A stretch of 32,000 nucleotides of DNA from Burkholderiales bacterium GJ-E10. GTDB taxonomy: Bacteria > Pseudomonadota > Gammaproteobacteria > Burkholderiales > Burkholderiaceae_F. The translations under genes and the position numbers were made by a program. The DNA lies in contig AP014683.1 of assembly GCA_000828975.1 (NCBI GenBank), positions 355,520-387,519 on the forward strand, given 5' to 3'. The notes beneath the pieces are model-generated. The model did no database searches. It had not been told where the DNA came from and saw nothing but the letters and a program-made list of their open reading frames with translations. Below, one piece after another: positions 4,383 through 28,451 of the stretch. Within the stretch, counting starts at the first letter, position 1. Each line of letters starts with the position of its first letter.

Positions 4383-4418
4383 CGGATCGGCTCCTTGAGC
4401 AAGATGGGAGCCGCGACA

Positions 4419-5126
4419 CTACGGCGCCTGAGCCGGCGGATCAGCCCCCATGTGTTGTTGGTCGAGCCGTTTGCGTCCACCGGCACGAGCAGCCGGTGGC
4501 GCAAACCCGACGAACCGGGGCAACTCGTGCAGGTACTCGGCGGCAAGGGCGCGGCCGTGCACCAGCACGCAGGCGCACCCCAAATGCGCCCGCAACGGCT
4601 CGACTCGCGGCAGACAGCCCCGCAGCCGCTCGGGCCACAGCGTGATCCAGCATTGGAATGCCATGCGCGCCGGCCGCAGCCGTCGCCTCAGCCAGCGCAG
4701 CGCGCTGGGTAGGCTGATGTCGTCGGGCCGCAGCAGCGCCGCGGCCTGCGCAAGGCTTGGGGATCGCTCGACGGCGGCCACGACCCGCTCGATGTCGGCC
4801 AGCGCGCCCGGAAACCTCGCCGCCAGGCAATCGGGCAGCAAGGCGAACGTGCAGTGTCCCTGCGGGCAGTACCAGCGGGCGATCCGTGTCCCGACAGGGG
4901 TGACGCGTGCATAGGTGCCGTTTCGGTGCAGTCCGCAGCCGCCCTTCGGGTGCAGCGGACACCTCTCGAGACTTGCCTGCCGCCACCCCTGTCGGGTAAC
5001 GTACTCCTCGCTGGTCAGCCCCGACGCGAATCGAAGCAGCACCAGCACCGGCCCGGCGGGGCCGTGTACCCCGCCGGGCCACCCCATTCCATGTGATCGC
5101 GCAAGCCTACCGCCGATCGCCGTCAC
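4419..5126 (-). CDS. Cys-rich hypothetical protein (first gene of the transposon operon)
   Basis: 235-aa ORF co-oriented with the transposase and ending 36 nt upstream of it. It has a cysteine/histidine cluster (CPLHPKGGCGLH...WYCPQGHCTFALLPDC) suggesting a zinc-binding module. The start is uncertain, since an internal Met also exists. Confidence 0.5.
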   Translation of the reverse strand: MTAIGGRLARSHGMGWPGGVHGPAGPVLVLLRFASGLTSEEYVTRQGWRQASLERCPLHPKGGCGLHRNGTYARVTPVGTRIARWYCPQGHCTFALLPDCLAARFPGALADIERVVAAVERSPSLAQAAALLRPDDISLPSALRWLRRRLRPARMAFQCWITLWPERLRGCLPRVEPLRAHLGCACVLVHGRALAAEYLHELPRFVGFAPPAARAGGRKRLDQQHMGADPPAQAP

Positions 5127-5327
5127 GGTCCAAAACGTCCGTTGCCAAATGGCAACCGCGGCACAGCGATCAACATCAATCAGGAGAAGCGGGGGGCCTG
5201 CCGCCCCCCGCTCCCCCCGCCGCTCGAGAAATACCCTTCAGAAACCCCTCACCCCCGCCAGCGACCCGCTCTCAACCACCGCAGTCCACCGCTCACCGGG
5301 GACGCAATCCGGCATCCAGAGAATCGC

Positions 5328-5355
5328 GGATTGCGAATTAACGCGGGAGACAACA
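5328..5355. repeat. Right terminal inverted repeat (IRR)
   Basis: GGATTGCGAATTAACGCGGGAGACAACA is the reverse-complement partner of IRL and ends in ...ACA directly before the CCTGG duplicate. Confidence 0.7.
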
Positions 5356-5360
5356 CCTGG
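5356..5360. repeat. Target-site duplication, right copy (CCTGG)
   Basis: Identical to 1756-1760 and directly abuts IRR. Confidence 0.75.
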
Positions 5361-6235
5361 AACAGGATTCTCTTTTGCGGTTGGGGCAGAAATTTCTCCT
5401 CAACAAGCGCCTCGTTGCGGTTGGAGGGGCGGTCCGGGTTCTGAATGGCTGCCGCGTCGAAGATGCCAGGGTGCAGGAAGTTCGGGCTCCGAAGCGCCTG
5501 ATCGAGTGTGTGCAGGCAGCCGAATATATGCGGAGTTTTTTTGTGGGGCGGCTGGGTTGGCATCGGGTGGACAGCCTGTTGATCATTTCCGGTGCGTTCG
5601 GCGTCTTTCGCAAGGATTTGATGGCAGCTGTCGGGGGCTATCGAAAGACGGTCGGGGAGGACATGGACGTCGTCATCCGTTTGCATCGGCACTGCGTGGA
5701 TCATGGGATTGCCTATGACGTCGGATTCGTTCCGGAGCCCGTATGCTGGACCCAGGTGCCGTCGGATATCCGCTCCTTGCTTCAGCAGCGAAACCGCTGG
5801 CAGCGGGGGCTGGTGGATTGTCTTTGGCATAACCGGGACATGTTCTTGAATCCGCGTTATGGCAAGGTCGGCCTGATCGGTTTTCCCTATTTTTTCTTTT
5901 TTGAACTGTTGGGCCCGTTGGTTGAGTTTCTGGGGTACATCGGCTTTGCTCTTTTTGCGCTTTTGGGCTGGGTCAGCGTACCGTTTGCGACCTTGTTTTT
6001 TCTGGTTGCGGTTTTGTGGGGGATGTGGCTGAATGCCGCCGGGGTTCTGATCGACAATCTTGTCGTTCATCGATATACGCGGTTGCGCGATACGCTCAAG
6101 GTGGCGTTTTGGGGGTCGCTTGAGTTCGTCGGATTTCGGCAATTGGTGGCGATCGAACGAATGATTGGAACGTTCCAGCTGTCGAGAGATAGATGGGGCG
6201 AGATTCGGCGTCACCGAGTGGAGGCCGGTCGGTGA
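5361..6235 (+). pseudogene. Family-2 glycosyltransferase, C-terminal fragment
   Basis: The frame continues from 1760: ...DADSIL|EQDSLLRLGQKFLLNKRLVAVGG. It contains GAFGVFRK, GEDMD and the processive-synthase motif QQRNRWQRG. Multiple C-terminal TM helices follow (FPYFFFFELLGPLVEFLGYIGFALFALLGW...). Confidence 0.85.
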
Positions 6236-8311: not shown

Positions 8312-8409
8312 GGCAACAATATTACGGAACTATTGAAAAATACTGGATTTTTTTGCCCAGGACATGGCAGAATCCTTCTCCGGTCCGAGCCGGAACGCGG
8401 TTCCCAGGC

Positions 8410-11420: not shown

Positions 11421-12954
<1,534 letters not shown>

Positions 12955-12970
12955 GAGATCGCGCCTCGAT

Positions 12971-12996
12971 TCAAGCGTCCACACTTATCGGTTGTT
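12971..12996 (+). other. 16S precursor processing stem, 3' arm
   Basis: Complement of 11251-11276 (see that feature). Confidence 0.7.
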
Positions 12997-13080
12997 CATG
13001 TCCAAGGCAGGGTCGGAGAATGGCGCGACATTCGGCGCGCATAGCGCAAGCGCTGTTGGCCTGAGGAATCGATGATTCTA

Positions 13081-13157
13081 GGGTCTGTAGCTCAGCCGGT
13101 TAGAGCACCGTCTTGATAAGGCGGGGGTCGTTGGTTCGAATCCAACCAGACCCACCA
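13081..13157 (+). tRNA. tRNA-Ile (anticodon GAU)
   Basis: GGGTCTGTAGCTCAGCCGGTTAGAGCACCGTCTTGATAAGGCGGGGGTCGTTGGTTCGAATCCAACCAGACCCACCA. The acceptor stem GGGTCTG/CAGACCC pairs, the anticodon loop is CTTGATAAG, and CCA is encoded. Confidence 0.97.
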
Positions 13158-13178
13158 GCGTCTCGCGTCTCGCTTGAC

Positions 13179-13254
13179 GGGGGTGTAGCTCAGTTGGGAG
13201 AGCGCCTGCTTTGCAAGCAGGAGGTCATCGGTTCGATCCCGTTCACCTCCACCA
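13179..13254 (+). tRNA. tRNA-Ala (anticodon UGC)
   Basis: GGGGGTGTAGCTCAGTTGGGAGAGCGCCTGCTTTGCAAGCAGGAGGTCATCGGTTCGATCCCGTTCACCTCCACCA. It has the G3:U70 identity pair, the anticodon loop CTTTGCAAG, and an encoded CCA. Confidence 0.97.
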
Positions 13255-13329
13255 CTGCAGCCTTGTCGGAGTTCATGCGCGATGGCATTCGGTGCCATGG
13301 CGCCTGACCTCCGGGTCTGGACAGAATCT

Positions 13330-13342
13330 CGTTCTTTAACAA
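13330..13342 (+). promoter_or_regulatory. boxA antitermination element (16S-23S spacer)
   Basis: CGTTCTTTAACAA, the second boxA-like copy, lies between tRNA-Ala and 23S. Confidence 0.6.
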
Positions 13343-13477
13343 TTCGAAGAAGCAAAGCGCATCGGCTCTTGATATGAGAGGAGCCGATGCCGGGTTGAAT
13401 TATTGCATTCAAACTCTCAGCAACTTGAGAAACAGCAAATCGTCGCGACATGACGGACCGGAGACGGCACCGTTATA

Positions 13478-16357
<2,880 letters not shown>

Positions 16358-16502
16358 ATAACCGTGCTGCCTCCCTCGAGGTGTTGGGGTGAGAGTGCAA
16401 TCAACCAGGTCTGTTCCGAATCGGAACAGACGCTTGCTTCCTTCGAATTGGATCGTTCGTACGCGCCGGTTTCCGGCGCGCGACGAAAGGTCGTCCGTCT
16501 TC

Positions 16503-16620
16503 AGCCTGATGACCATAGCGAGGTGGAACCACTCCTTCCCATCCCGAACAGGACAGTGAAACGCCTCAGCGCCGATGATAGTGGGATGTATTTCCTGTGA
16601 AAGTAGGACATCGTCAGGCT
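16503..16620 (+). rRNA. rrf: 5S ribosomal RNA
   Basis: AGCCTGATGACCATAGCGAGGTGG...CCGAACAGGACAGTGAAACGCC...GTAGGACATCGTCAGGCT. Helix I (AGCCTGATGAC/GTCGTCAGGCT) pairs fully. The sequence aligns to E. coli 5S by eye. Ends are good to +/- 2 nt. Confidence 0.9.
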
Positions 16621-16665: not shown

Positions 16666-16755
16666 CGCTTTTCTCGTGTCAATCATGACACCGATTCCCG
16701 GAAGAACCGCACCGCGACTACGCGATCCGTGCCCTTCCGCACTCGAAAGCAAATC

Positions 16756-18117
16756 ATGTCGTTTGAATCCCTTGGGCTAGGCGAGGCGCTCGTGCGCGCG
16801 GTCGCGGATGCGGGCTATACGGAGCCCACCCCGATCCAGCGGGAGGCGATCCCTGCCGTGTTGAGCGGTGGCGACCTGTTGGCCGGAGCACAGACCGGTA
16901 CCGGCAAGACTGCATCGTTCGTTCTTCCGATTCTCGAGCGCCTCCATCGCGCGGGCGACGCGCCGCAGGAAGGGCGCCGCAATGGACGCCGGATCCGGGC
17001 GCTGATCCTGGCACCGACGCGCGAGCTGGCGGCCCAGGTGGAGCAGAGCGTCCGCGAATACGGAAAGTACTCCCCGCTGCAGTCCCTGGCGGTGTTCGGG
17101 GGCGTGTCGATCAATCCGCAGATCGAACGACTGCGCCGCGGTGTGGACATCCTGGTGGCGACCCCCGGGCGGCTGCTGGACCACCACAGCCAGCGGACGA
17201 TCGATCTTTCCGGCATCGAGATCCTCGTTCTGGACGAAGCCGACCGCATGCTGGACATGGGGTTCATTCATGACATCCGCCGGGTGCTGGCGATCCTGCC
17301 GAAGAAGCGGCAGAGCCTGCTGTTCTCGGCGACGTTTGCCGAGCCGGTCCGGGTCCTGGCGGAATCCTTGCTGCACACGCCCAAGCGAATCCAGGTGACG
17401 CCGAAGAACACGACGGTGGATGCGGTCAACCAGGTCGTGGTGCCGGTCGACGCTGCGCGGAAGGCGGACCTGCTGGAGCACCTGATCCGCGAAGGAAACT
17501 GGTTCCAGGTGCTGGTGTTCACGCGAACCAAGCACGGTGCGAACAAGCTCGCGACCCGCCTGGAAAAGTGCGGGATCAGTGCGCTCGCCATTCACGGCAA
17601 CAAGAGTCAGAACGCGCGGACGCGCGCGCTGCAGGAATTCAAGAGCGGATCGCTGCAGGTCTTGGTGGCCACCGATATTGCGGCGCGAGGGCTGGATATC
17701 GAGCAGCTCCCGCACGTGGTGAACTTTGAACTGCCCATGGTCGCAGAGGACTACGTCCACCGGATCGGCCGCACCGGTCGGGCGGGCGCAACCGGGGAGG
17801 CGATATCGCTCGTGGCAGTGGATGAGGCGCCACGCCTGCACGATATCGAACGCCTGACGAAACGCGATCTCCCGCGGCGCACCGTTGCCGGATTCGAGCC
17901 CGAACGGCCGCTGCCCCAGGCCGGCTCCGGCGGCGCGCGGAAGCGGAGCGATTCCCGCCCCGCGGCCAATCGCGGTCCGAATCATCCCCCTGCGCGCGCG
18001 GGAGGCCGCGTTCCCGCGGCCGGAGGAGCGCGACACGACGGAGGCGGGCGCTCCGGCGCGGGCCGCCGCCACGGCGAAAAGAGCGGGGAAAGACGCGCAA
18101 ACCGGACCACCGGCTGA
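16756..18117 (+). CDS. rhlE: ATP-dependent DEAD-box RNA helicase
   Basis: Starts MSFESLGL. Motifs present: Q-motif region (TEPTPIQ), [10 protein letters not shown], Ia [34 protein letters not shown] and [12 protein letters not shown]. It has an Arg/Gly-rich basic C-terminal tail typical of RhlE. The ORF is open from 16729, but the ATG at 16756 matches the canonical N-terminus. Confidence 0.9.
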
Positions 18118-18186
18118 CCGCCCGTTTCCGTACGCTGAGGCAATTCCAAGGTCCAGCAGGGCGCGGAGCGCGCCCGCGGAGTTGCC

Positions 18187-18834
18187 ATGGCGGAGTTCGA
18201 CGAGTCTGCGAACCGACTCACTCTGAAGCTCGTCTACTACGGGCCGGCGCTGAGCGGAAAGACGACGAACCTCCTGCAGTTGCATGACCGGCTTGCCCCG
18301 CCGGTGAAAGGGGAGGTGATGAGCCTCGATACGCGAGGCGATCGCACGCTCTTTTTCGATCTCCTCCCGATCGGGGCACGCTTGCCGGACGGCCTGCTGC
18401 TGAGGGTGAAGGTATATACCGTGCCGGGCCAGGTCGCCCACGACGGGACGCGCAAGGCGGTCCTGTCGCGGGCCGACGGCGTGGCGTTCGTCGCCGACTC
18501 GCAGCGCGGCCAAAGCATCAACAACGGCGAATCGTTCGAGAATCTCGCAGCGAACTGCGCGCGGGTCGGAATCGACTTCGACACGTTGCCGCTGGTCGTG
18601 CAGTACAACAAGCGGGATTTGCCGGGCGTCCTCACCGAAGCCGAAATCGAGGCGCGCTGGCATGGCGCTGCGTGGCCCCTGATGTTCGCATCGGCGGTTG
18701 CCGGGCAAGGCGTGTCCGAGACCTTCGCGGCATTGCTGCAGGCGGTTCTTGGACGCCACCATGCCGAAGGCGGACGGCTCCACCGGTGCGTTCCCGACGG
18801 CCGGGAAGTGCTGGAGGCGTTGGGGCTGGCATGA
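18187..18834 (+). CDS. mglA: MglA-family Ras-like small GTPase
   Basis: 215 aa. Diagnostic blocks align with Myxococcus xanthus MglA, recalled from memory: KLVYYGPALSGKTTNL (P-loop), DRTLFFDLLP (intrinsic Arg53), YTVPGQV (Gln82), VADSQ and QYNKRDL (NKxD). A GGAG Shine-Dalgarno lies 5 nt upstream of the ATG. Confidence 0.85.
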   Translation: MAEFDESANRLTLKLVYYGPALSGKTTNLLQLHDRLAPPVKGEVMSLDTRGDRTLFFDLLPIGARLPDGLLLRVKVYTVPGQVAHDGTRKAVLSRADGVAFVADSQRGQSINNGESFENLAANCARVGIDFDTLPLVVQYNKRDLPGVLTEAEIEARWHGAAWPLMFASAVAGQGVSETFAALLQAVLGRHHAEGGRLHRCVPDGREVLEALGLA

Positions 18835-20108
18835 AGGAAATCCGCTCATCCAGCGAGGTTTCGCCGCCGGCCGTCGCCGCGCCCGGACCTCGGTTCGATC
18901 GCGATCGGAGCCTGCACGAACTCCTGGACGACCTGCCGATGCCGCAGATCGGTGCGGCGATCGAACAGCTGTGCGGCCCCTATGTCCTGGTCGACGGCGC
19001 GGGTTCCGTTCATACCCGCCGGGGAGTGATCGCGATCGAGTACGCCGAGATCCCGATCCGGTGGCAGGCCGAGCCGATCGGGTTCCTGCGCGCCTCGGTT
19101 TCCGTCGAACCCGCCGCCCTGCGCAGCGCCGCCGACCTGCTGGAGGCGATCATCGCGTCGGCGGCGCGCTATGCCATGGCACGGGATCTCCACAGCGAGG
19201 CCGTCGCCGCCGATTTCGATGCCCTTCAGCGCAAACACGCGCAGCTCGCCGCGTCCGAGGCACGATATCGCGACCTGGCCGCAAGCCTGGAACGGCGGGT
19301 TGCAGACCAGGTGAAGGCCCTCGACAACGGCTACCGCCAGGTCTACCGTTCCGAGAAACTGGCATCGGTCGGCCGACTCGCCGCCGGTGTCGCCCATGAG
19401 ATCAACAACCCGATCGGCTTCGTGCGCAGCAACCTTGCCACCGCGCGCGGATATGTCGAGAAGTTCGGATCGGTGGGGGCGGCGTTGCGGGAAGGACGGG
19501 CAGGCGAAGCGGAGGGTCGATGGCGCGAATCCGACCTCGACTACATCCTGGAAGACTTTTCCGCGTTGATCGAGGAAAGCATCGCCGGCGCCGACCGGAT
19601 TGCGGCCATCGTCGGCGACCTGCGGCGCGCGGCCAATATCGACCGCGCCGAGGAAGCGCTCGCTGACGTCAACGAGCTCGTGCGCGCTGCCGTGGCACTT
19701 GCGTCGAACGGCGCCGCGGCGCATCCCCGCCTCGCGCTTCAGCTCCGGAACGTCCCGCCGATCCGCTGCCGGCCGGCGCAGATCAGCGAACTGATTCGGA
19801 ATCTTCTATCCAATTCGATCGCCGCGATCCAGTCGGGCGGGGAGGTCACGGTGCGTACCGAAATGGCCGATTCCTGCCTCGTTCTGGAAGTGATCGATAC
19901 CGGCGAGGGGATCGCACCGGAGACGCTCCCCCGGGTATTCGACCCCTTCTTCACCACCCGTGCCATCGGCCAAGGCACCGGCCTTGGGCTGACCGTATGC
20001 CGGGACATCGTTGAGGCGCACGAGGGAACGATCGATCTAGCCAGCGCGCCGGGGCGCGGAACCACCGTGACCGTGCGCATCCCTGCAGGATGGACAGGCG
20101 GAAGCTAG
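18831..20108 (+). CDS. Soluble sensor histidine kinase (uncharacterised N-terminal domain, coiled coil, HisKA, HATPase_c)
   Basis: The ATG at 18831 overlaps the mglA stop (ATGA). No TM segments are seen. H-box: EKLASVGRLAAGVAHEINNPIGFV. N-box: LIRNLLSNSIAAI. G-boxes: VIDTGEGI and GQGTGLGL. The upstream part of the 478-aa track ORF overlaps mglA and was discarded. Confidence 0.85.
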   Translation: MKEIRSSSEVSPPAVAAPGPRFDRDRSLHELLDDLPMPQIGAAIEQLCGPYVLVDGAGSVHTRRGVIAIEYAEIPIRWQAEPIGFLRASVSVEPAALRSAADLLEAIIASAARYAMARDLHSEAVAADFDALQRKHAQLAASEARYRDLAASLERRVADQVKALDNGYRQVYRSEKLASVGRLAAGVAHEINNPIGFVRSNLATARGYVEKFGSVGAALREGRAGEAEGRWRESDLDYILEDFSALIEESIAGADRIAAIVGDLRRAANIDRAEEALADVNELVRAAVALASNGAAAHPRLALQLRNVPPIRCRPAQISELIRNLLSNSIAAIQSGGEVTVRTEMADSCLVLEVIDTGEGIAPETLPRVFDPFFTTRAIGQGTGLGLTVCRDIVEAHEGTIDLASAPGRGTTVTVRIPAGWTGGS

Positions 20109-20124
20109 GCGGAACCCCCCCATC

Positions 20125-22362
20125 ATGTCGAACCTCGCCGCGTTTTTTACCGGGGCCGGCGGCGCCGGACTCACCACCGAGGCGGCAACACCGCCCTCGC
20201 GCTACCGGCTCCTGATCGTCGATGACGAACCCAACGTGTTGCGGGCGCTGGAGCGTGCCTTCCGCCAGGAAAATTACGACATCGTCACGGCGCCGAACGG
20301 CGTCGACGGCTTGCGCATTCTCGGGCAGCACGAAGTCCAGGTGGTGATCTCCGATTACATGATGCCCCGGATGAACGGCGCCGACTTTCTGCGGGAAGTG
20401 AAGGCGGCGTATCCCGACACGATCCGGATCATGCTCACCGGTCACGCCGACAGTGGTGCGGTGATGGGGGCGGTAAAGGATGGCGCGGTCTACAAGTTCA
20501 TTCTCAAGCCCTGGAACGACGACGATCTGCGCCTGAGCGTCGCCCTGGCGATCGAACAATACGAATTGTCGCGGAAGAACCGCGCGCTGCAGCAGGAAAA
20601 TCGCGACAGGGAGCGGGAAATCTCCGCCCTGGCCCGGATGGCCGTCAACAACCGCAGCCAACTCGCGCTCCTGTTGAACAAGAGGGCCTTGCTGACTTCC
20701 CAGCAGGTGCAGGAACTGCACCGCCTCCAGCAGCAGCGCAAGGAGCCCATGATCAAGCTCATCGTCGAGCGGGAATGGGTCGACCAAAACCGGATCTTCG
20801 ACATTCTCCGCAAGGACATGTTGGCGGAGGAGGTCGCATTACCGGAGTTCTCGATCGATCCGGCGGTTGCGGCCCTCGTTCCCCACGCGTTTTGCACCCG
20901 CGAATGGGTCCTGCCGGTTCGGTTGACCGGGCGCAAGCTGCTGCTCGCCATGGCCGATCCTCTCGACGCGGGGCTGCTCTCCGACGTGCGGTTCGTCACC
21001 GGTCTCGAGATCGTGCCGGCGCTCGCGGCGGTGGCGGCGATCCAAGCGAAGATTGCCGAAGTGTATGGCGGCAATGACACCACGGACCTGCGGGAGCTCA
21101 CCTCGGTCGTCGACGTCGCCGACCCGTACGAGGGAATCGAGATCGTCATCGAAGACGACGACGATGTGGCGCTCGAGGAGCTGCTGCGCCAGACCGAGGA
21201 GCCGCCATCGATCCGTCTTGCGAACTCGATCGTGCTCGAGGCGATCCGCCTGAAGGCAAGCGACATCCACATCCAGCCGCGGACCAAGAACGTGGCCGTG
21301 CGCTACCGGATCGACGGCGTGCTGATCGACAAGTTCCAGATTCCGGGCGGCATTCACCAATCGCTGGTGTCGCGCATCAAGGTCATGGCGGAACTCGACA
21401 TCAGCGAACGGCGGCGCCCCCAGGACGGCCGCATCACCGTCAAGACGCCTACGCGCATCGTCGATCTGCGAATCTCGACCTTGCCGACGATCAATGGCGA
21501 AAAGGTGGTCATGCGCATTCTCGACCGCAACTCGGCGGCACTGTCGCTGGAACAACTGGGTTTCCTCGATCGCGATCTGCTGCGGATCCAGCGGATCGCC
21601 GACAAGCCCCAGGGCATCATCCTGGCGACCGGCCCGACGGGAAGCGGCAAGACGACCACGCTCTACAGCCTGCTGCAGCACAGTGCAACACCGGGAAAGA
21701 ACTACATCACGCTGGAAGATCCGGTCGAGTACTACATGGATCAGGCCGGGCAGGTGCTGATCCGGGAACGGATCGGCCTCACGTTTCCGGTCGCGTTGCG
21801 CGCGATCCTGCGCCAGGATCCGGACGTGATCCTCCTCGGGGAGATCCGCGATGCGGAAACCGCGGAGGTCGCATTTCATGCCGCATCGACGGGCCATGTC
21901 GTGTTCTCCACGTTGCATACCAACTCGGCGGCGGCAACCGTTTCGCGCCTTCTCGACTTGGGTTTGAAGCGCGAGATCATCGCCACCACGCTCGAGGGCA
22001 TCATCGCGCAGCGCCTGGCGCGCAAGGTTTGCGCCCACTGTGGAGAGGAGCATGCGCCGGACCGCGCATTGCTTGCGCAATTGGGCCCGCGTTTTGTCCA
22101 GGAGGTGTCGTCGATCCGCCGCGGACGGGGCTGCGGAAAGTGCCACGGCACCGGCTATCTCGGCCGTGTCGGTCTTTACGAGGTGCTGTCCCCCGACGAC
22201 ACGCTGCGCCAGCAGATCGCCGCCGGCGTGAGCGTTCTCGAGATGGCGCACAGCGCCCGCGAGCGGGGGTTTGCATCCCTGATCGACGACGCACTCGAGA
22301 AGATCAAGGCCGGAATGACCAATCCCGAGGAAATCTTCCGGGTGCTCGGTCCGCAGAACTGA
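20125..22362 (+). CDS. Response-regulator receiver fused to T2SSE_N domain and PilB/GspE-family secretion ATPase
   Basis: 745 aa. REC domain: LLIVDDEPNVL...VVISDYMMPRMNG...FILKPWNDDDL. A coiled-coil linker follows, then a GSPII_E_N-like domain (...LLLAMADPLDAGLLSDVRFVTGLEIVPALAA). The ATPase core has Walker A GPTGSGKTTT, Asp box/Walker B DPDVILLGEIRD, His box TGHVVFSTLHTN and a tetracysteine motif CAHCGEE...CGKCHGTGYLGR. Confidence 0.9.
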   Translation: MSNLAAFFTGAGGAGLTTEAATPPSRYRLLIVDDEPNVLRALERAFRQENYDIVTAPNGVDGLRILGQHEVQVVISDYMMPRMNGADFLREVKAAYPDTIRIMLTGHADSGAVMGAVKDGAVYKFILKPWNDDDLRLSVALAIEQYELSRKNRALQQENRDREREISALARMAVNNRSQLALLLNKRALLTSQQVQELHRLQQQRKEPMIKLIVEREWVDQNRIFDILRKDMLAEEVALPEFSIDPAVAALVPHAFCTREWVLPVRLTGRKLLLAMADPLDAGLLSDVRFVTGLEIVPALAAVAAIQAKIAEVYGGNDTTDLRELTSVVDVADPYEGIEIVIEDDDDVALEELLRQTEEPPSIRLANSIVLEAIRLKASDIHIQPRTKNVAVRYRIDGVLIDKFQIPGGIHQSLVSRIKVMAELDISERRRPQDGRITVKTPTRIVDLRISTLPTINGEKVVMRILDRNSAALSLEQLGFLDRDLLRIQRIADKPQGIILATGPTGSGKTTTLYSLLQHSATPGKNYITLEDPVEYYMDQAGQVLIRERIGLTFPVALRAILRQDPDVILLGEIRDAETAEVAFHAASTGHVVFSTLHTNSAAATVSRLLDLGLKREIIATTLEGIIAQRLARKVCAHCGEEHAPDRALLAQLGPRFVQEVSSIRRGRGCGKCHGTGYLGRVGLYEVLSPDDTLRQQIAAGVSVLEMAHSARERGFASLIDDALEKIKAGMTNPEEIFRVLGPQN

Positions 22363-22446
22363 CGACGAACGTCCAAGCGCGCCGAGACCGGATCCCGCAC
22401 GCGGCCCCGCCTTGGCGCACCGCTCGCGTTCGTGGCGGGGAAGCCC

Positions 22447-23796
22447 TCAGGAATGGAGCGGATCGATCCGGATCTGCAGTCGGATCGGTTGCCCGGTCCG
22501 GATCTCGAATTGCCGGATCCGCCGGATGAGCGGCTCCGTCAATGCATGTCCGGCAACGAGCAGCAGCACGCCTTGGGGCGACAGGAAGTCTGCCGCCAGG
22601 ACCATTCCAGGTGCCAGCTCGCCGGTCGCCATCGGTACGGCCGTTCCCGAAACCGGTGCCTGGCGATGTTCCGACAGCCGGATCTGCAGGAACACGTCCA
22701 CAACCTCGGGGTCGAACTGGGTGCCGCGCCCCTGCCGCAGCAGGATCTGCGCCTCGTCCTCGTTCGGCATCGCGCCGCCCAGATGTCCTTCCTGCAGTTC
22801 GTCGAAGGCATCGGCGACGGCGAGAATGCGCGCGCTCCGACTGATCTCGATCCCGACCTTCCGATCCGGGTAGCCCAGGCCGTCGAAGCGCTCATGGTGT
22901 TCGTGGATGATCGCCGCGACCCCATGGAGATCTTCCAGCGGCATGAGCAAGTGCTCTCCCAGTACGGGATGCTGCTGGTATTGGGCGAGTTCCTCGGGTT
23001 CCATCCGCGCGACCGGCTTCGCCAGCATTGCGTCGGGCAGGCCGATGTGCCCGATGTCATGCAGCAATGCGGCGACGAAGAGATCCTGCTTCTCCGATTC
23101 GTCCAGGCCCATCGCCTGCGCGATCGACCGGGCCGCGGCGGCAACCCGGCGGCCGTGGCCTCCCAGCCGTCCGCCGCGCAACTCCAGGACGTTGGAAAAC
23201 ACCTTGATCGAGGTGAGAAAGGTGGATTTCAGCTTCCGGTTGGCCTGTGCCAGTTCCTGCGTCCGCTCCTGCACCCGTTCTTCGAGATGTTCGTTGAGCG
23301 CCCGCAACGCGAGATTCTGCTGCTGCGTGAGGGCCTCCAGCCGATCCTTGTCGCGTTGCAGCTCGACGCGTTCCAGGCCCTGATGGACCGCCGCGCGCAG
23401 TTCCGATTCGTCCCAGGGCTTGTTGAAGTAGCGGTGGATCCGGCCCCGGTTGACGGCGGCGATCGCCGCGCTCATGTCCGCATGCCCGGTGAGCAGGATG
23501 CGGATCGTATCGGGCCAGGAAGCCTGGACCTGTTCGAGAAACTGCGCCCCGTCCATCCCGGGCATCCGCATGTCGGAAATCACCACGTCGATCGGCGTTT
23601 CCCGCAGCATGGCGAGCCCCTCGGGTCCGCTTCCCGCGGTGAGGATGCACAGATCCGGCGCCCGGAGGGCGCGCCGCAGGGACGCGAGAATGTTGGGCTC
23701 GTCATCGACGCAGAGCACGGTCGGCGGGGGCGCCTTCTGCACGGCGATCGCAAGGCCTTGCGGCGCGTCGGTGGAATCCGGGATCGGTACGGTCAT
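22447..23796 (-). CDS. RpfG-family response regulator (REC + HD-GYP c-di-GMP phosphodiesterase) with C-terminal extension
   Basis: 449 aa. REC: VLCVDDEPNIL...VVISDMRMPGMDG...YFNKPWDESEL. A coiled coil follows. HD-GYP: LLHDIGHIGL and HHERFDGLGYP. There are about 75 extra C-terminal residues. An AAGGAA Shine-Dalgarno lies upstream of the ATG. Confidence 0.9.
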   Translation of the reverse strand: MTVPIPDSTDAPQGLAIAVQKAPPPTVLCVDDEPNILASLRRALRAPDLCILTAGSGPEGLAMLRETPIDVVISDMRMPGMDGAQFLEQVQASWPDTIRILLTGHADMSAAIAAVNRGRIHRYFNKPWDESELRAAVHQGLERVELQRDKDRLEALTQQQNLALRALNEHLEERVQERTQELAQANRKLKSTFLTSIKVFSNVLELRGGRLGGHGRRVAAAARSIAQAMGLDESEKQDLFVAALLHDIGHIGLPDAMLAKPVARMEPEELAQYQQHPVLGEHLLMPLEDLHGVAAIIHEHHERFDGLGYPDRKVGIEISRSARILAVADAFDELQEGHLGGAMPNEDEAQILLRQGRGTQFDPEVVDVFLQIRLSEHRQAPVSGTAVPMATGELAPGMVLAADFLSPQGVLLLVAGHALTEPLIRRIRQFEIRTGQPIRLQIRIDPLHS

Positions 23797-23811
23797 GGGC
23801 GGTTCCTTGCT

Positions 23812-24756
23812 CTATGCGGCTGGCGGCTCGGGCTGCCGTACCGGCAGGCGGACGACGAAGCGCGTCCCCCTTCCGGGTTGGCTATGCACCGCGATGTCGC
23901 CGTGGTGTTTCCGCACGATGCCGTAGGAAAGCGACAGCCCTAGTCCGGTTCCTTGTCCGATCGGCTTGGTCGTGAAGAACGGGTCGAAAATGCGCGCGGC
24001 GTTTTCGGGCGGAATGCCGCAACCATCGTCGGCGACCTCGATCCGGACCTGGCCATCGGATTCGTCGTATGCGGTACGGATGGTGATGGTACCGCGGCGA
24101 TTTCCATCCATCGCCTGGGCGGCATTGACGAGCAGGTTCATGATGATCTGGTTGATTTCGGATGGCAGGCATTCCACGTCCGGAAGATCGCCGTATTCCC
24201 GGACGACGTCGGCCTTGTACTTGATCTCGTTGTTGACGATGTTGAGCGTCGATTCGATGCCGCGATGAAGGTCCGCATGCTCCCACTCCTGGCGGGCGTC
24301 GACGCGCGAAAAGTCCTTGAGATCCTGCACGATCTTGCGCACGCGTTCGATCCCTTCCCGCGACTCCGCCATCAGGGTGGGAATGTCTTCCTTGAGAAAA
24401 TCGAGTTCGATCTCCTCGCGCAGTTGCCGCAGTTGCATTCGGGCCATGGGGTCGGCCACCAGCGATTCCGCCCGTTCGTAGGCATCCAGCATGCGGAAGA
24501 GCTGCATGACGTATTTTTCGAGACTGCCGAAGTTGCAGAACACATATCCGACCGGATTGTTGATCTCGTGCGCAACGCCCGCGGCAAGCTGGCCGATCGA
24601 GGCCAGCTTCTCCGACTGCATCAGCATGTTGCGGGTCTGCGAGAGTTTCCGGTTCGCCTCCTTCAGTTCCTCGTTGGCGCGGATGAGATTGCGGATCTGA
24701 TCGGCGTCGCGCGTGGCCTCGGCGGGAACGGGAGTGCGCGAATCATCGGAGTCCAT
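23812..24756 (-). CDS. Histidine kinase lacking a recognisable sensor domain (coiled coil, HisKA, HATPase_c)
   Basis: The start MDSDDSRT at 24756 gives 314 aa. H-box: EKLASIGQLAAGVAHEINNPVGYV. N-box: IIMNLLVNAAQAM. G-boxes: VADDGCGI and GQGTGLGL. The longer 450-aa track ORF runs through the HDOD gene in another frame and was trimmed. Confidence 0.85.
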   Translation of the reverse strand: MDSDDSRTPVPAEATRDADQIRNLIRANEELKEANRKLSQTRNMLMQSEKLASIGQLAAGVAHEINNPVGYVFCNFGSLEKYVMQLFRMLDAYERAESLVADPMARMQLRQLREEIELDFLKEDIPTLMAESREGIERVRKIVQDLKDFSRVDARQEWEHADLHRGIESTLNIVNNEIKYKADVVREYGDLPDVECLPSEINQIIMNLLVNAAQAMDGNRRGTITIRTAYDESDGQVRIEVADDGCGIPPENAARIFDPFFTTKPIGQGTGLGLSLSYGIVRKHHGDIAVHSQPGRGTRFVVRLPVRQPEPPAA

Positions 24757-25639
24757 GCCGTATCTCCCGGAACGCGGTTTCGACGCGATGGAAAAGGCGC
24801 AGAGGCGCTTCGGTCGACCATTGCAGCCGATCCCACGATGCACGCTGCATGGGCGGTACCAGGTCGTCGCCGGCGGCATGGAGGTCGAGTGCATGGGCGA
24901 TGCCGTCGGCGTTGTGAACCAGGTCGGCAAGCGAGGCACGGCCGGGCCGCCTGGACGAGGTCCCGGCGACCGCATCGGAATCCTCGTCCTCCCCGGACAG
25001 ATGACCGGGGTTGTGGTGCCATGCGATCGCATCGATGACCGCTTCGGTGAAGTGCCAGTGGGCGGCGATCCAGGCGCCGACCTGGCAGTGATCGATCCCC
25101 AATGCCGCACGTTCGGCTTCGAGCCGGGGAAGGTCGCGATCCCGCGCGTCGCGCACCACGGCACCGTATTCCTGCGGAAAGTGGGAGGCGAGGGCGAGCG
25201 AACCCAGATCGTGGATCAAGCCCGCGGTGAAGGCTTCGTGCATCGCATGGCCCGACTCCCGCGCGAGTTCCTGCGCGGCGATCGCAGTCGCCAGGGAGTG
25301 CTCCCAATATTTCGGAAAGTCGAAGGTCGGGCAGCCGGGGCCGTGTAATCGCTGTGCCAAGGACTCCTGCATCACGATGGTTTCGACGGTGCGCAGTCCG
25401 ATGAGGCGGATCGCGTCTCCCACCGTGGAGATCGATCCCGACATGCCGTAAAACGACGAGTTCGCAACCCGCAGGATCCGCGCCGTGATGGCCGGATCGA
25501 TGTCGATTTTGCGCGCGAGATCGTCGAACCCGATGTCGTCATCACGGAATGCGGCCATCAACTCGTGCGCTGCCGCGGGAAGCATCGGCAGCGCCTGGAC
25601 GCGGTCGCGGACCTGCTCGGCATCGATGCGCGCCATCAT
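24743..25639 (-). CDS. HDOD domain protein
   Basis: The start MMARIDAEQV at 25639 gives 298 aa. HDOD-typical blocks: LPMLPAAAHELMAAF, DPAITARILRVANSSFYG, VGDAIRLIGLRTV and GLIHDLGSLAL. Its stop overlaps the downstream kinase start by 14 nt. The start is uncertain. Confidence 0.8.
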   Translation of the reverse strand: MMARIDAEQVRDRVQALPMLPAAAHELMAAFRDDDIGFDDLARKIDIDPAITARILRVANSSFYGMSGSISTVGDAIRLIGLRTVETIVMQESLAQRLHGPGCPTFDFPKYWEHSLATAIAAQELARESGHAMHEAFTAGLIHDLGSLALASHFPQEYGAVVRDARDRDLPRLEAERAALGIDHCQVGAWIAAHWHFTEAVIDAIAWHHNPGHLSGEDEDSDAVAGTSSRRPGRASLADLVHNADGIAHALDLHAAGDDLVPPMQRASWDRLQWSTEAPLRLFHRVETAFREIRHGLR

Positions 25640-25808
25640 GACGGGGGCTCCGTGCGGTAGCGCCGCATCAGATGCATGAGCGGATGCACCCGGCCTTCGC
25701 GCAGCCAGACGCGGAACAGGATGTCGAGCCGGCGGAGTTCCACCGATGACGAGGCGGGCGCCGTCGGGTCCGGCGGCACCGCTTCGTTCCGGGGGGATCG
25801 AGGATCGG

Positions 25809-28451
25809 TCATGAGTCGGCTCCTGCCGCAAGGGGCGCCGCAAACGGTTCGGAAGGGAACAAGATGAGCAGATTCTCCAGGGCGTTGTCCGCCGCCGCCA
25901 GCGTACGCCGGAATGCAAGGTACCGGCGACTCCCGATTTCGAGCCGGGTCGCCGTCGAATCCGGTTTGCGGAGGACTTCCGTGAGCGGGCCCGGCAACAT
26001 CGCCGCCGAACCGCCGATGACCGCCGGGATGGCCGGATCGAACCGCGCCGGATCCCCTTGCACGAATACGATCAAGCCCTCGGCATCCACTCCGATGATC
26101 ACCGCGGGAAGGCTGTCGAGGATCCGGCGCACGCCGTTGGCCGCGCGTGCCAGGACGCGTGCATGGTCGCTGTGGCGGGACACCGCCTCCTGCAGGCGTG
26201 CGTTCATCTGCTCGAGATCGGCCTTTGCCGCTTCGACTTCCCGCGCCAGGCGGCGGTTTTCGTCGGCCAATTCCTTTTTGCGGAACGCATCCGCGATCCG
26301 GTTGCGCAGTTTCTCGTCATCCCAGGGCTTGGTGAGGAACTGGTAGATCGCGCCTTCGTTGACGGCATCGATGATCGACTGCAGATCGGTGAATCCCGAC
26401 AGCACCATGCGAACGGTGTCGGGTACCAGCTCTTTGGCGCGGCGCAGGAATTCGACACCGGTCATGCCGGGCATGCGCTGGTCGGAGAGGATCACGTCGA
26501 CATGGGTTTCGGCGAGGAGCTTGAGCCCTTCGGCAGCGCTGTGGGCGAGGAGGATCCGATACCCTTCCCGGCGCAGGAGGCGGCGCAGCGAGGAAAGGAT
26601 GTTTTCCTCGTCGTCGACCAGCAGCAGAGTCCGCTGTGTTCCGGCGCCGCGCAGGAACTGCGCCGGCAGCCGTCGGTCCTCGCGCAGCATGGCCGTGATC
26701 TCGTCCGCCTCCACCGCTTTGCTGAAGTAGTGCCCCTGGACGAGATCGCACCCGTTGGTCGACAAGGTCTGGAGTTGATCCTCCGTCTCCACGCCTTCGG
26801 CGAGCACCCGAAGCTGGAGGCTGTGCGACATGGCGATGATGGCGCGGGTGACCGAGGCGGTTTCCGGCGATAGCAGCACGTCGGGGATGAGCGAGCGGTC
26901 GACCTTCACGACGTCGACGGGCAGTCGATGGAGCCGGCTGAGGCTTGCGTGGCCGGTGCCGAAATCGTCGAGCGCGATTTCGAACCCGATCGCCTTCAGG
27001 TCGCGCAGGACCGCGGCCGCCTGCTGCGCGTCGTCGAGGAGCGCCGTTTCGGGCACTTCCAGTCCCAGCCAGGACGGATCGCAGTGGCAGTCGAGCACGA
27101 TCCGCTGCACCCAGGCGGAAAAGTTCGGCTGCTGGAGATGGCCCCGGGACAGGTTGACCGTGATCCGCGGCGCGTGCAGGCCGGCGGCGCGCCACGCGAG
27201 CGCCTGCCGGCAGGCTTCCCGGAGCACCCAGCCGCTTACGGCGAGGATCATGTCGCTGCGTTCCGACAGGGGAATGAACTCGGCGGGCGGCACCTCGCCC
27301 AGCGCCGGGGAGCGCCAGCGCAGCAGGGCCTCGACGGACGCGATTTCCCCGTTCGTCAGGTTCATGACCGGCTGGTACGCAAGCGAGAGTTCACCGGCGG
27401 TGATCGCTCCGGGCAGCGCGGACTCGATTCGCAGGGAGCGGATGACGTCCGGGTCGGCCTCGCCCGCGAAGGCAATGGTTCCGGGGGCTGCGCCCGACGC
27501 GGTCGACTCGGCGCGATCGATGAGGTTGGCCGGGTCGTCGGCGTCGCCGGGGAATCCCGCAATGCCGATCGCGCATTGCGGGAATCGTTCCGACGCACCG
27601 ATCCGCGCCGGGCGGTTGACGGCGGCCCGCAACTGGCGCGCCCGGGCCACCAGCGTTTCCGGCGTCTGGCGTTGGCCCGGGTCGGGGAGCACGGCGAATC
27701 CGGCTTCGCCGATGCGTGCGAGGAGATCTCCGGGGCCGCACTGTTCCCCCAGCCGGGATGCGATCGTCATGGCGAGGCTGTTCGACGCGCCCGATCCGGC
27801 GGCGATTCCCAGGTCCGCCGCGATCGTCGGCACCTGGATGGCGATCAGCGCGAGCGGAATCGTGCCCGATGCGGGGGCTGCGCCCCGGCTTCGGAGCGCA
27901 GCGGTTTCCAGATCGACCTCCTCGCGCAGCGATGCGCGATTGGGCAGCCCGGTGACTTCATCGCGATCGGTGAGCTCCTTGATGCGCCGCTCCGCCTCGA
28001 CGTGCAGGGTGATGTCCTGGAGCAGGCCGACGCCATGGAGATCACCGCTGTCGAAGCGTTCGAGAATGCCGCGATGGCGGACGATCAGGGTCCTGCCGTC
28101 GCCGTGGACGGCGCGGTGGCGGAATTCGAAGGGTTGCCCGGGGGTCGCCATCCGCCAGAACGCCGTCACGTACGCCTGGTCGGAGGCGGGGATCCAGGGG
28201 CAGGTGTCGAGCGGGAAGCAGCAAGGGTCGGGCGACCCGCCGAGCATCGCGCTGAGCGCCGGCGATGCCGTGAGCGTACCGGCCGGAAACGCAACCTCGA
28301 ACAGGCCTACGCCGCCCAGGGACTCCAGCCAGGTGAGCTTGCGGGTGTTGTCCGCCTTTTGACGCGCGAACCGCTCGGGGTCGGGATGATCGCGCACCGT
28401 GGTCGGCTCCGTCGCCGCATCGGCGGAAGGACGGTTCGAGCAAGGCTGCAT
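25809..28451 (-). CDS. Multidomain c-di-GMP signalling protein: PAS, degenerate GGDEF, EAL, REC, coiled coil, C-terminal PAS-like
   Basis: 880 aa. The GGDEF-domain entry is TGLPNRASL, but the active-site motif reads GEAGF (27696-27710) instead of GG(D/E)EF. EAL motifs are EALLRW, DDFGTGHAS and AEGVET. An internal REC follows (LLLVDDEENIL...VILSDQRMPGMTG...FLTKPWDDEKL). The C-terminal segment is PAS-like (LDSLPAVIIGVDAEGLIVFVQG). Confidence 0.85.
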   Translation of the reverse strand: MQPCSNRPSADAATEPTTVRDHPDPERFARQKADNTRKLTWLESLGGVGLFEVAFPAGTLTASPALSAMLGGSPDPCCFPLDTCPWIPASDQAYVTAFWRMATPGQPFEFRHRAVHGDGRTLIVRHRGILERFDSGDLHGVGLLQDITLHVEAERRIKELTDRDEVTGLPNRASLREEVDLETAALRSRGAAPASGTIPLALIAIQVPTIAADLGIAAGSGASNSLAMTIASRLGEQCGPGDLLARIGEAGFAVLPDPGQRQTPETLVARARQLRAAVNRPARIGASERFPQCAIGIAGFPGDADDPANLIDRAESTASGAAPGTIAFAGEADPDVIRSLRIESALPGAITAGELSLAYQPVMNLTNGEIASVEALLRWRSPALGEVPPAEFIPLSERSDMILAVSGWVLREACRQALAWRAAGLHAPRITVNLSRGHLQQPNFSAWVQRIVLDCHCDPSWLGLEVPETALLDDAQQAAAVLRDLKAIGFEIALDDFGTGHASLSRLHRLPVDVVKVDRSLIPDVLLSPETASVTRAIIAMSHSLQLRVLAEGVETEDQLQTLSTNGCDLVQGHYFSKAVEADEITAMLREDRRLPAQFLRGAGTQRTLLLVDDEENILSSLRRLLRREGYRILLAHSAAEGLKLLAETHVDVILSDQRMPGMTGVEFLRRAKELVPDTVRMVLSGFTDLQSIIDAVNEGAIYQFLTKPWDDEKLRNRIADAFRKKELADENRRLAREVEAAKADLEQMNARLQEAVSRHSDHARVLARAANGVRRILDSLPAVIIGVDAEGLIVFVQGDPARFDPAIPAVIGGSAAMLPGPLTEVLRKPDSTATRLEIGSRRYLAFRRTLAAADNALENLLILFPSEPFAAPLAAGADS

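Follow-up and report, generated by a model that had tools for sequence, protein, structure and literature searches.

The small GTPase MglA is the paradigm of bacterial Ras-like polarity switches, and knowledge of it, obtained almost entirely in Myxococcus, Thermus and Bdellovibrio, centres on its partner MglB. Here, an operon with an MglA-family GTPase gene and no linked mglB is described in a 32,000-nucleotide stretch of the genome of Burkholderiales bacterium GJ-E10 (assembly GCA_000828975.1, contig AP014683.1, positions 355,520 to 387,519 of the forward strand), which is referred to as the window throughout. On its forward strand, three packed genes at positions 18187-22362 encode the GTPase (215 amino acids, aa), a soluble histidine kinase (HK1, 425 aa) and a PilB/GspE-family ATPase with an N-terminal receiver domain (REC::PilB, 745 aa). 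Comparison with related genomes shows that the three genes mglA-HK1-REC::PilB form a genuine unit that is ancient and widely inherited. By analogy with described systems, MglA may serve as a nucleotide-state input to HK1, which would set the phosphorylation of the receiver, and the receiver would in turn gate a PilB-type motor on a filament machine encoded elsewhere; we put the probability of this reading at roughly 0.45.

Several described systems share features with this operon. In the MglA-MglB systems of Myxococcus xanthus and Thermus thermophilus, the GTPase has the same Group-1 catalytic set (Arg53, Thr78-x-x-Gly-Gln82 and NKRD) as the GTPase from GJ-E10, and in both cases an MglA-family switch is functionally associated with an ATPase of the kind that extends type IV pili. 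In the described system, type IV pili are activated by MglA-GTP via SgmX (PMC7668184), and SofG positions PilB and PilT (PMC4316618). The GJ-E10 operon differs in having no linked MglB or Roadblock GTPase-activating protein (GAP), with none listed at all in some carriers, in the Ala of its P-loop at the position of MglA Gly21, and in the link to the ATPase, which consists of a co-operonic kinase and a fused receiver rather than polar scaffold proteins. Its carriers belong for the most part to the Beta- and Gammaproteobacteria, Desulfobacterota and Nitrospirota, unlike those of the M. xanthus/T. thermophilus system.

The actinobacterial conservon (CvnA kinase, CvnB Roadblock protein, CvnC and CvnD GTPase; also Mfp) is the only other described operon pairing an MglA-family GTPase with a histidine kinase (PMC4316618; PMC12236503). 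Its GTPase belongs to Group 2 and has a deviant G4 motif, in contrast to the Group-1 NKRD of the GTPase described here. Conservons always contain Roadblock and DUF742 proteins, genes for neither of which were found near the three-gene unit, and they combine a membrane kinase, equipped with a HAMP domain and an LPxR tail, with no response regulator, whereas in the GJ-E10 operon the kinase is soluble, its presumed cognate receiver is part of a fusion and the output is enzymatic.

A further parallel is provided by the NosP-NosK-NosR and H-NOX-HnoK systems, in which a soluble HEINN kinase with an unannotated N-terminus is controlled by a separate small accessory protein. NosK is soluble, contains the HEINN motif and has an unannotated N-terminus of ~130 aa; NosP controls its autophosphorylation, and NosK phosphorylates the REC-HD-GYP protein NosR (PMC12570481). 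The regulator of these systems combines an RpfG-type receiver with an output related to cyclic di-GMP (c-di-GMP), and a REC-HD-GYP protein encoded in the window passes the NosR cut-off. In the GJ-E10 locus, the place of the accessory protein is taken by the GTPase beside HK1 and by an HDOD-domain protein beside a second kinase (HK2), and of the two outputs, one is an ATPase of the PilB type.

With respect to the motor, the c-di-GMP-regulated MshE/PilB (MshEN) and FimX-PilZ-PilB systems contain ATPases of the same family and with the same N-terminal MshEN architecture, which are regulated via their N-terminus (PMC5013675; PMC8389850). Compared with MshE/PilB, the GJ-E10 ATPase has degenerate 24-residue motifs and a phospho-receiver fused upstream. 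Receiver domains control the extension motor of type IV pili in the case of PilG/PilH (Chp) and of the PATAN-REC regulators binding PilB1 in Synechocystis (bioRxiv 10.1101/2021.06.11.447907). These act in trans, whereas the receiver of the GJ-E10 ATPase is covalently fused, is paired with a classical rather than a CheA-type kinase and is accompanied by a GTPase.

The domains of the operon are all of known kinds, and the operon itself appears to be undescribed, in agreement with a preliminary description of the locus, which had not recognized it as a known system. No account of it was found in the full-text literature, including under the locus tags of carriers, although many papers in subscription journals lie outside this coverage and the absence is not proof. 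REC-MshEN combinations were catalogued in 2016 without mention of the operon (PMC5013675). Its distinguishing features are the MglB-less MglA clade, the dedicated kinase, the receiver-fused PilB and a paralogous HD-GYP arm.

A three-gene unit inherited across phyla

The preliminary description reported three co-oriented, tightly packed genes, and the open reading frames (ORFs) and start sites are as claimed. The TGA stop of mglA and the ATG start of HK1 overlap as ATGA at 18831-18834 (ctggcATGAaggaa), with a GGAGG located 12 nt 5' of the ATG, and HK1 is separated from the ATPase gene by 16 nt (20109-20124); in gene calls, the gap between kinase and ATPase amounts to 8-18 nt. The ORF of HK1 as listed starts at an upstream GTG (18672), and the in-frame ATG at 18831 gives the 425-aa product ending at 20108. 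An exact-sequence look-up in the GJ-E10 annotation identified the three proteins as BAP87476.1 ("GTPase SAR1 and related small G protein"), BAP87477.1 ("uncharacterized protein E1O_03460") and BAP87478.1 ("type II secretion system protein E"). A scan of 17900-22700 was uninformative, with no promoter-like site and two terminator-like sites compared to three expected. On the reverse strand, a 690-aa ORF without family assignment (16777-18849) runs antisense to mglA and a helicase gene; it is one of the spurious long ORFs typical of high-GC DNA and a pitfall for length-based gene calling.

The GTPase has more than 8000 relatives in databases, the closest of which are ~70% identical and occur in Beta- and Gammaproteobacteria. 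A scan with one genome per species revealed at least 596 genomes with a GTPase relative, and the best 80 loci were examined. These comprise Burkholderiales, Rhodocyclales (Zoogloea, Azonexus, Dechloromonas, Aromatoleum) and Nitrosomonadales; the remainder include methanotrophs, Marinobacter, the Pseudomonas/Stutzerimonas group and Chromatiales, as well as Desulfobacterales, Geobacterales/Desulfuromonadales, Nitrospirota, Bacteriovoracaceae and a few metagenome-assembled genomes (MAGs) of Bacteroidota. Cultivable and genetically accessible bacteria are among the carriers, i.e., Marinobacter, Stutzerimonas azotifigens, Pseudomonas zhanjiangensis, Methylomonas, Methylotuvimicrobium, Zoogloea, Azonexus, Dechloromonas, Janthinobacterium, Geomonas and Desulfoluna.

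The order mglA > kinase > receiver > ATPase was detected by tblastn in 64 of the 72 species loci with enough downstream sequence to be evaluated, and in 62 of the 64 loci whose GTPase is at least 55% identical to that of the window. Gene calls of Methylotuvimicrobium sp. KM2 and of a Sulfuricella MAG show the identical three-gene order. In the reciprocal direction, the receiver together with the PilB N-terminus served as anchor in metagenome contigs, yielding 50 REC::PilB fusions, 37 of which have at least 2 kb of upstream sequence; kinase and mglA are located upstream in 35 of these (exceptions: L111 and L118). Chance adjacency of the three genes is ruled out by this forward and reciprocal synteny, and its conservation in relatives, on which the preliminary description had made its interpretation depend, is thereby established. 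In locus L118 (6001-8433), REC::PilB comprises 810 aa with an extra C-terminal double zinc-ribbon tail (CxxC...CPHC...CxxC...CPFC), and a REC-kinase and an HK1-like kinase are encoded upstream.

Two loci (L071, L078) retain mglA and the kinase without the ATPase. Distant MglA-like genes (50-53% identity; Myxococcota, Bradymonadia) have no ATPase, yet a gene for a PocR-domain histidine kinase lies directly next to them. Coupling of GTPase and kinase extends beyond the three-gene module, and the pair is the most persistent association of the operon, since these distant MglA-like genes without an ATPase still precede a kinase. In L083 (10001-12117) and L085 (789-2995), which come from MAGs of Bradymonadia and Myxococcota, an MglA-like protein of 240 aa with the same type of P-loop (GPALSGKT) is followed directly by the PocR-domain kinase, with neither REC::PilB nor MglB.

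The window was scanned with Pfam over the main ORF candidates of at least 150 aa and, for MglB, over all segments of at least 70 aa. None of its long ORFs matched Roadblock/MglB, pilC/gspF, pilin, secretin or pilMNOPQ families. With M. xanthus MglB as query (100% identical to PDB 6h5b_B), no match at E <= 10 was obtained by phmmer in 8414 ORF segments taken from the window (stop to stop, at least 70 aa) and 85 related loci. The reported absence of mglB, pilus and secretion genes from the 32 kb is in line with both searches. Neither mglB nor a pil cluster was found in the 18 kb upstream and 10 kb downstream of the operon or within 10 kb of the module in the 85 related loci, which also settles the earlier concern that a canonical cluster might lie just outside the window. 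No MglB gene was found within four genes of mglA, the distance used to define a coupled MglA-MglB system. Among 127 small unassigned ORFs within 2.5 kb of the module, Robl_LC7 is not one of the 25 Pfam families listed out of 40, and the other 15 are single-member families, so that a lone case is possible. A hidden MglB nearby was rejected on the basis of the missing phmmer match and the lack of a recurrent Robl_LC7. Clustering of 228 further ORFs of at least 260 aa within 10 kb revealed no family in more than 4 of 72 loci and no recurrent non-signalling family; its top neighbour families (ABC-F, HAMP kinase, EamA, MCP, iPGM, SNF and MatE) include none related to pili.

These data bear on the conventional explanation, according to which the genes belong to a normal MglA/MglB polarity module and a normal pilB, whose partners lie elsewhere in the genome, and are neighbours without functional significance. 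The search for MglB and pil genes in GJ-E10 covered the 32-kb window, and Methylomicrobium and Methylomonas do have MglB genes elsewhere. However, these are coupled to a separate Group 3 MglA, and no MglB-family gene is listed for Dechloromonas aromatica RCB or Hahella chejuensis, both of which carry the clade (PMC4316618, Tables S2 and S3). Moreover, a receiver fusion is not known in canonical PilB, the P-loop sets the clade apart (GPA[LQM]SGKT vs GPGLCGKT of canonical MglA), and gene order is kept across phyla in both search directions, with a start/stop overlap between the first two genes. Already contradicted by the conservation data, the conventional explanation is highly improbable.

The GTPase, the kinase and the receiver-fused ATPase

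The 215-aa GTPase scores below the cut-offs of curated Pfam and NCBIfam models, the best match being Arf with 21.7 bits vs 22.3. Comparison with the PDB by phmmer aligned residues 5-199 to MglA of M. xanthus (5ymx, E = 9.6e-45) and T. thermophilus (3t12, 1e-40), and these solved structures confirm the family assignment made in the preliminary description. Together with the catalytic motifs, the PDB comparison rules out the objection that a protein with a sub-threshold Arf match in Pfam is not really MglA. The motifs comprise the P-loop G19-P-A21-L-S-G-K25-T26, R53 within DRTLFFD, T78-V-P-G-Q82 and N141-K-R-D144. In an alignment of 16 homologues, K25/T26, R53, T78, Q82 and NKRD are invariant, and TVPGQ is present in 84 of 86 loci. 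The protein thereby shows the features of Group 1 MglA as defined by Wuichet and Sogaard-Andersen (2014; PMC4316618), namely a G3 motif (TxxGQ) that contains the catalytic Gln and has Thr in place of Asp, an intrinsic Arg finger located in switch I and a G4 motif that conforms to the [NT]KxD consensus. It departs from Group 1 at the position equivalent to Ras Gly12 (Gly21 in M. xanthus MglA), where the Gly of the group is replaced by Ala21. This residue is invariant in the 16-homologue alignment and in all retrieved P-loops, partly by construction, as the motif was one of the two patterns used in the locus scan. The consequences of substitutions at Ras G12 and of MglA G21V are established biochemistry and underlie the effect predicted for Ala21. 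By this analogy, Ala at the Ras-Gly12 position suggests a slow or differently stimulated GTP hydrolysis, which would be consistent with the absence of MglB. The GTPase also has a C-terminal tail of ~25 residues that canonical MglA lacks, and its mean column identity of 75% makes it the slowest-evolving member of the operon. Four members of the clade (Daro_0968, HCH_00229, MEALZ_0921 and Metme_1144) have been listed as orphan Group 1 MglA proteins, with their context not given (PMC4316618, Table S2).

Pfam detects in HK1 a weak HisKA match and HATPase_c (96 bits), with no HAMP domain among its matches, and leaves ~170 N-terminal residues without annotation; the best NCBIfam match (NF038348, "T2SS_HK") reaches 220 bits, under the cut-off of 450. 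When the sequence was read by eye, no hydrophobic transmembrane stretch was seen. The H-box AHEINNP with H189 contains the H-E-x-x-N kinase/phosphatase motif, and none of the residues H189, N328, D356, G358, G360 and G380-G386, which represent the H, N, G1 and G2 boxes, varies among 54 orthologues. An AlphaFold2 model built with these orthologues (pLDDT 86) consists of an N-terminal domain (N-domain, residues 28-89), a single unbroken helix (94-220) leading into the domain for dimerization and histidine phosphotransfer (DHp), and a normal domain for catalysis and ATP binding (CA). No match to the N-domain was obtained by profile search in Pfam, NCBIfam and PDB sequences. Foldseek against the PDB returned nothing at E <= 1e-3 and weak, mixed PAS/GAF/Roadblock matches (MglB 3t12_B with E 0.46 and a TM score of 0.40); the helix between strands 2 and 3 that is typical of Roadblock folds (alpha-beta-beta-alpha-beta-beta-beta) is missing. 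In the model, the N-domain emerges as a candidate partner-binding domain, perhaps for MglA, and its connection to DHp by one helix provides a predicted geometry that suits the relaying of a binding event. Apart from its catalytic core, HK1 is best conserved among the 54 orthologues in residues 113-143 of the stalk helix (~19167-19259). Here, R113, M116 and H121 are invariant and Y114, A117, E123, V125, D128, L132, H136, L139 and E143 nearly so, creating a conserved surface located between the N-domain and DHp.

The third protein was correctly recognized in the preliminary description as a receiver-fused PilB/GspE ATPase, with Pfam matches to Response_reg (residues 30-138, 86 bits), MshEN (237-317, 65 bits) and T2SSE (357-739, 421 bits). 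It consists of an RpfG/NosR-type receiver, a helical linker and a full-length PilB-like protein with MshEN_N-like helices, an N1 domain and a core with a Cys4 zinc site. The best PDB matches are PilB structures (5zfr/5tsg, E ~1e-122), aligned from residue 18 of Geobacter PilB. In 68 orthologues, D33, D34, D77, T105 and K128 of the receiver are invariant, and Walker A, the Asp box, Walker B, the His box and the four zinc cysteines are essentially so. Judged by their motifs, all three operon proteins look catalytically competent.

MshEN domains that bind c-di-GMP contain two tandem RLGxx(L/V/I)(L/V/I)xxG(L/V/I)(L/V/I)xxxxLxxxLxxQ motifs, and imperfect motifs may still bind (PMC5013675). In the 68 orthologues, motif I has QLA... 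for RLG, with Q for R and A/G for G, while the hydrophobic pattern and the terminal Gln are kept. Motif II reads PMI...E...D for RLG...G...Q; in most orthologues, its R is replaced by P/F, its G by I and its Q by E/D. By alignment, the c-di-GMP motifs of the ATPase are degenerate family-wide, motif II above all, which suggests that phosphorylation replaced direct c-di-GMP sensing.

It is conceivable that the ATPase no longer powers a filament and has been domesticated as a PilB-type hexamer for signalling or remodelling, with MglA, the two kinases, the HD-GYP and the HDOD proteins forming a cytoplasmic decision circuit. The protein remains below the curated cut-offs of both the PilB equivalog (TIGR02538, 536.5 bits vs 675.65) and the GspE equivalog (TIGR02533, 522.2 bits vs 630.25; gsp genes were not found nearby), its conserved neighbours are all signalling proteins, and genes for platform, pilin, secretin and alignment-complex proteins are not linked in the window or in 72 genomes. 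In addition, MshEN occurs fused to many non-pilus domains (PMC5013675). Nevertheless, the full PilB architecture (N1, N2 and zinc site) and the invariant motifs are as expected for a motor docking on PilC/PilM-type partners, and PilB paralogues sharing one machine are common, as in Ramlibacter with three PilB proteins and one machinery (PMC3164672). Domestication of the ATPase is therefore considered unlikely.

The larger cluster and its surroundings

In the preliminary description, the operon was regarded as a self-contained module. This part of the claim did not hold, as the three genes usually form part of a larger cluster with HK2 > REC-HD-GYP, HDOD and REC-PAS genes, a block that in the window is inverted at 22447-28451 (Table 1). 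Its typical layout is REC-PAS > HDOD > HK2 > REC-HD-GYP > (REC180) > mglA > HK1 > REC::PilB; the first block is inverted and located downstream of the module in GJ-E10, in L006 and in a Rhodoferax MAG (L017). A homologue of the REC-HD-GYP protein, a phosphodiesterase of the NosR family, is encoded in at least 50 of 85 loci, mostly just upstream of mglA on the same strand (~-1.9 to -0.6 kb), whereas in the window its gene is convergent with that of the ATPase. At other loci, it is preceded by a kinase gene, often by HDOD, and by a gene for a REC + PAS-like protein, with the order REC-PAS > HDOD > HK > REC-HD-GYP in several of them; REC-PAS-GGDEF-EAL proteins are also encoded nearby. The receiver and tail of the 880-aa protein in the window correspond to a separate gene at other loci, termed REC280 (REC + PAS-like), homologues of which occur in ~40 loci.

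Table 1. Positions of the operon genes, their domains and the genes of the inverted block in the window.
Feature	Position	Strand	Description	Evidence
mglA-like gene	18187-18834	+	215 aa, Group-1-type MglA-family small GTPase	ORF, phmmer, exact match to BAP87476.1
HK1	18831-20108	+	425-aa soluble histidine kinase	ORF, HATPase_c, AlphaFold2 model
HK1 N-terminal domain	18912-19097	+	residues ~28-89, two short helices then four-stranded meander	models, pLDDT 86
REC::PilB/GspE-family ATPase	20125-22362	+	745 aa	Pfam, NCBIfam, PDB comparison; BAP87478.1
ATPase receiver domain	20212-20538	+	residues 30-138; D33, D34, D77 (phospho-acceptor), T105, K128	Pfam, orthologue alignment
MshEN_N-like region of ATPase	20656-20820	+	residues ~178-232, degenerate c-di-GMP motifs	alignment to Geobacter PilB
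T2SSE ATPase core	21193-22341	+	Walker A 503-511, Asp box 531-535, Walker B 565-576, His box 589-600, Cys4 636/639/670/673	Pfam
REC-HD-GYP response regulator	22447-23796	-	449 aa, NosR family, HD (246) and GYP (308) intact	HD_5 141 bits; NF053512 518.4 bits vs cut-off 400
HK2	23812-24756	-	~314 aa from ATG 24756 (longest ORF to 25164), bare DHp-CA kinase, AHEINNP H-box	NF038348 353 bits, under 450
HDOD-domain protein	24743-25639	-	~298 aa from MMARID start (longest ORF to 25918)	HDOD 198 bits
PAS-like/GGDEF/EAL/REC protein	25809-28451	-	880 aa, ~160-aa C-terminal extension	EAL 241, REC 83, GGDEF 43 bits

The two arms of the cluster are related to each other. HK1 and HK2 are paralogues with 38% identity over 270 aa, and the receivers of the ATPase and of the REC-HD-GYP protein are 42% identical. 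The longest ORFs of HK2 and HDOD overlap by ~420 nt; the likely starts (ATG 24756 with a GGGAGA ribosome-binding site and MMARID at 25639) reduce this to a 14-nt overlap of the HDOD stop and the HK2 start, which suggests translational coupling in the inverted block, too. A NosP-type system was considered for this arm, as its REC-HD-GYP member belongs to the NosR family. This candidate was rejected, as a Pfam scan of the window ORFs detected no FIST/NosP or H-NOX gene and HDOD holds the corresponding place.

The REC180 proteins that precede mglA elsewhere are receiver proteins of ~175-185 aa with a coiled-coil tail and a C-terminal PGITxVxWxxDGSxxL motif, whose genes stop 3-16 nt before the mglA ATG. 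They are found in at least 18 loci (e.g., L025 9440-9997 and L044 9461-9985), many of them from Rhodocyclales, Marinobacter and others, and are absent from the window. By analogy with the receiver protein RomR, REC180 is a candidate for a partner of MglA.

The region is flanked by two more proteins of c-di-GMP turnover, one with PAS-GAF-GGDEF-EAL architecture (8353-11028, forward strand) and the other with a PAS-like domain, a weak GGDEF, EAL and REC domains and a tail (25809-28451, reverse strand); together with the HD-GYP and HDOD proteins, this amounts to four c-di-GMP-related genes in 20 kb. A complete rRNA operon (11421-16619; 16S, tRNA-Ile-GAT, tRNA-Ala-TGC, 23S and 5S) ends ~1.6 kb upstream of mglA and accounts for a low-GC stretch of the window, and a DEAD-box helicase gene (16729-18117) is located between the two. 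UvrA and an M61 peptidase are also encoded in the window according to Pfam. At 1118-6235, a family-2 glycosyltransferase gene (fragments 1118-1816 and 5375-6235) is apparently split by an IS21-like insertion. This element, at ~2.2-4.4 kb, comprises an istB-like (AAA_22; 2236-3036) and an istA-like gene (integrase-core rve; 3036-4382) on the reverse strand, opposite to the glycosyltransferase parts; a repeat search for its boundaries revealed no clean terminal inverted repeats.

Direction of signal flow and significance

The preliminary description proposed a path from GTPase to phosphorelay to motor. Here, the linkage of the genes is conserved, and the direction of flow is inferred from gene order, which allows MglA as an output or localization partner equally well. 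Along the proposed path, the MglA-like GTPase would be an accessory input to the sensor-less HK1, binding its N-domain or the conserved stalk helix depending on the nucleotide state; such a role is suggested by NosK, whose control by NosP is the closest precedent for a soluble HEINN kinase with an unannotated N-terminus. Through its H-E-x-x-N kinase/phosphatase motif, HK1 would then set the phosphorylation of D77 in the fused receiver, a predicted transfer that is supported by the adjacency and co-inheritance of the two genes. Acting through the helical linker, the state of the receiver would gate the assembly or activity of the PilB-type hexamer, and the hexamer would power type IV filament machinery encoded at another place in the genome, most simply by replacing or competing with the housekeeping PilB. 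Receiver control probably took over from direct c-di-GMP control, while HDOD and the HK2 > REC-HD-GYP arm may adjust c-di-GMP in parallel. MglB would play no part in this path, and the invariant Ala at the Ras-Gly12 position would make the GTPase slow or differently regulated. A more detailed proposal holds that the Ras-like GTPase sets the kinase/phosphatase mode of HK1 via an MglB-independent effector/GAP surface composed of N-domain and stalk, that the phospho-signal switches on a receiver-gated PilB paralogue in the filament machine of the cell, and that this control replaced direct c-di-GMP sensing; as a whole, it is put forward as a tentative and rather doubtful extension.

Several observations weigh against the proposed path. 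Within the operon, the HK1 N-domain evolves fastest (25-40% identity) and MglA slowest, which is odd for a dedicated interface. HK1 and HK2 as well as both receivers are paralogous, so that cross-phosphorylation between the arms is possible. L118 retains REC::PilB and an HK1-like kinase with the N-domain and has no mglA within 6 kb. No filament platform gene is linked in 72 genomes, so that the case for a pilus role of the ATPase is one of homology. Finally, the GTPase of the conservon has been proposed to be an output of its kinase and not an input (PMC4316618).

This last point leads to an alternative in which MglA is the output or a localization partner of the system. HK1, by way of its N-domain or stalk, or a phosphorylated receiver would act as its GAP or guanine nucleotide exchange factor (GEF), or MglA-GTP would bind REC::PilB and recruit it to a pole or to the pilus platform, its activity being set independently by phosphorylation. 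The kinase would then sense something else, e.g., via partners from the larger cluster. In M. xanthus, the receiver proteins RomR, FrzS and AglZ are partners of MglA, and RomR/RomX is its GEF. At least 18 loci encode the ~180-aa receiver protein (PGITxVxWxxDGS) immediately before mglA, which fits this pattern, even though its gene is missing from the window and many other loci. Invariance of R53 and Q82 indicates that hydrolysis matters and that a GAP-like partner is to be expected despite the lack of MglB. MglB/Roadblock structures are indeed among the weak top Foldseek matches of the HK1 N-domain, but these matches are non-significant (E 0.5-1, TM ~0.4), the N-domain lacks the Roadblock helix between strands 2 and 3, and it has no other recognizable ligand-binding fold that would make it a true sensor. 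An output role of MglA is possible on this evidence, though rather less probable than MglA acting as the input to HK1.

As to the three points that the preliminary description had named beforehand as decisive, synteny is conserved, the GTPase belongs to the MglA family and no canonical cluster is adjacent; overall, the interpretation is partly supported. The module would provide an MglA clade able to function in the absence of MglB. Its hard wiring of an MglA-family GTPase to a PilB-type motor at the level of the genes would suggest that the connection between GTPase and pilus predates myxobacterial polarity and extends beyond it, and the fusion of a receiver to a motor for pili or secretion would be a directly testable mechanism for the phospho-switching of hexameric ATPases. 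The operon would also be the second example, after the conservon, of crosstalk between a small GTPase and a histidine kinase, this time with a clear enzymatic output, making the question of the interface between GTPases and two-component systems tractable. If it proves true, which is a tentative prospect, a GTPase-timed, phosphorylation-driven switch for pilus extension would be the first bacterial pathway described that leads from a small GTPase through a two-component system to a motor, with a relative of its GTPase in at least 596 species of the scan.

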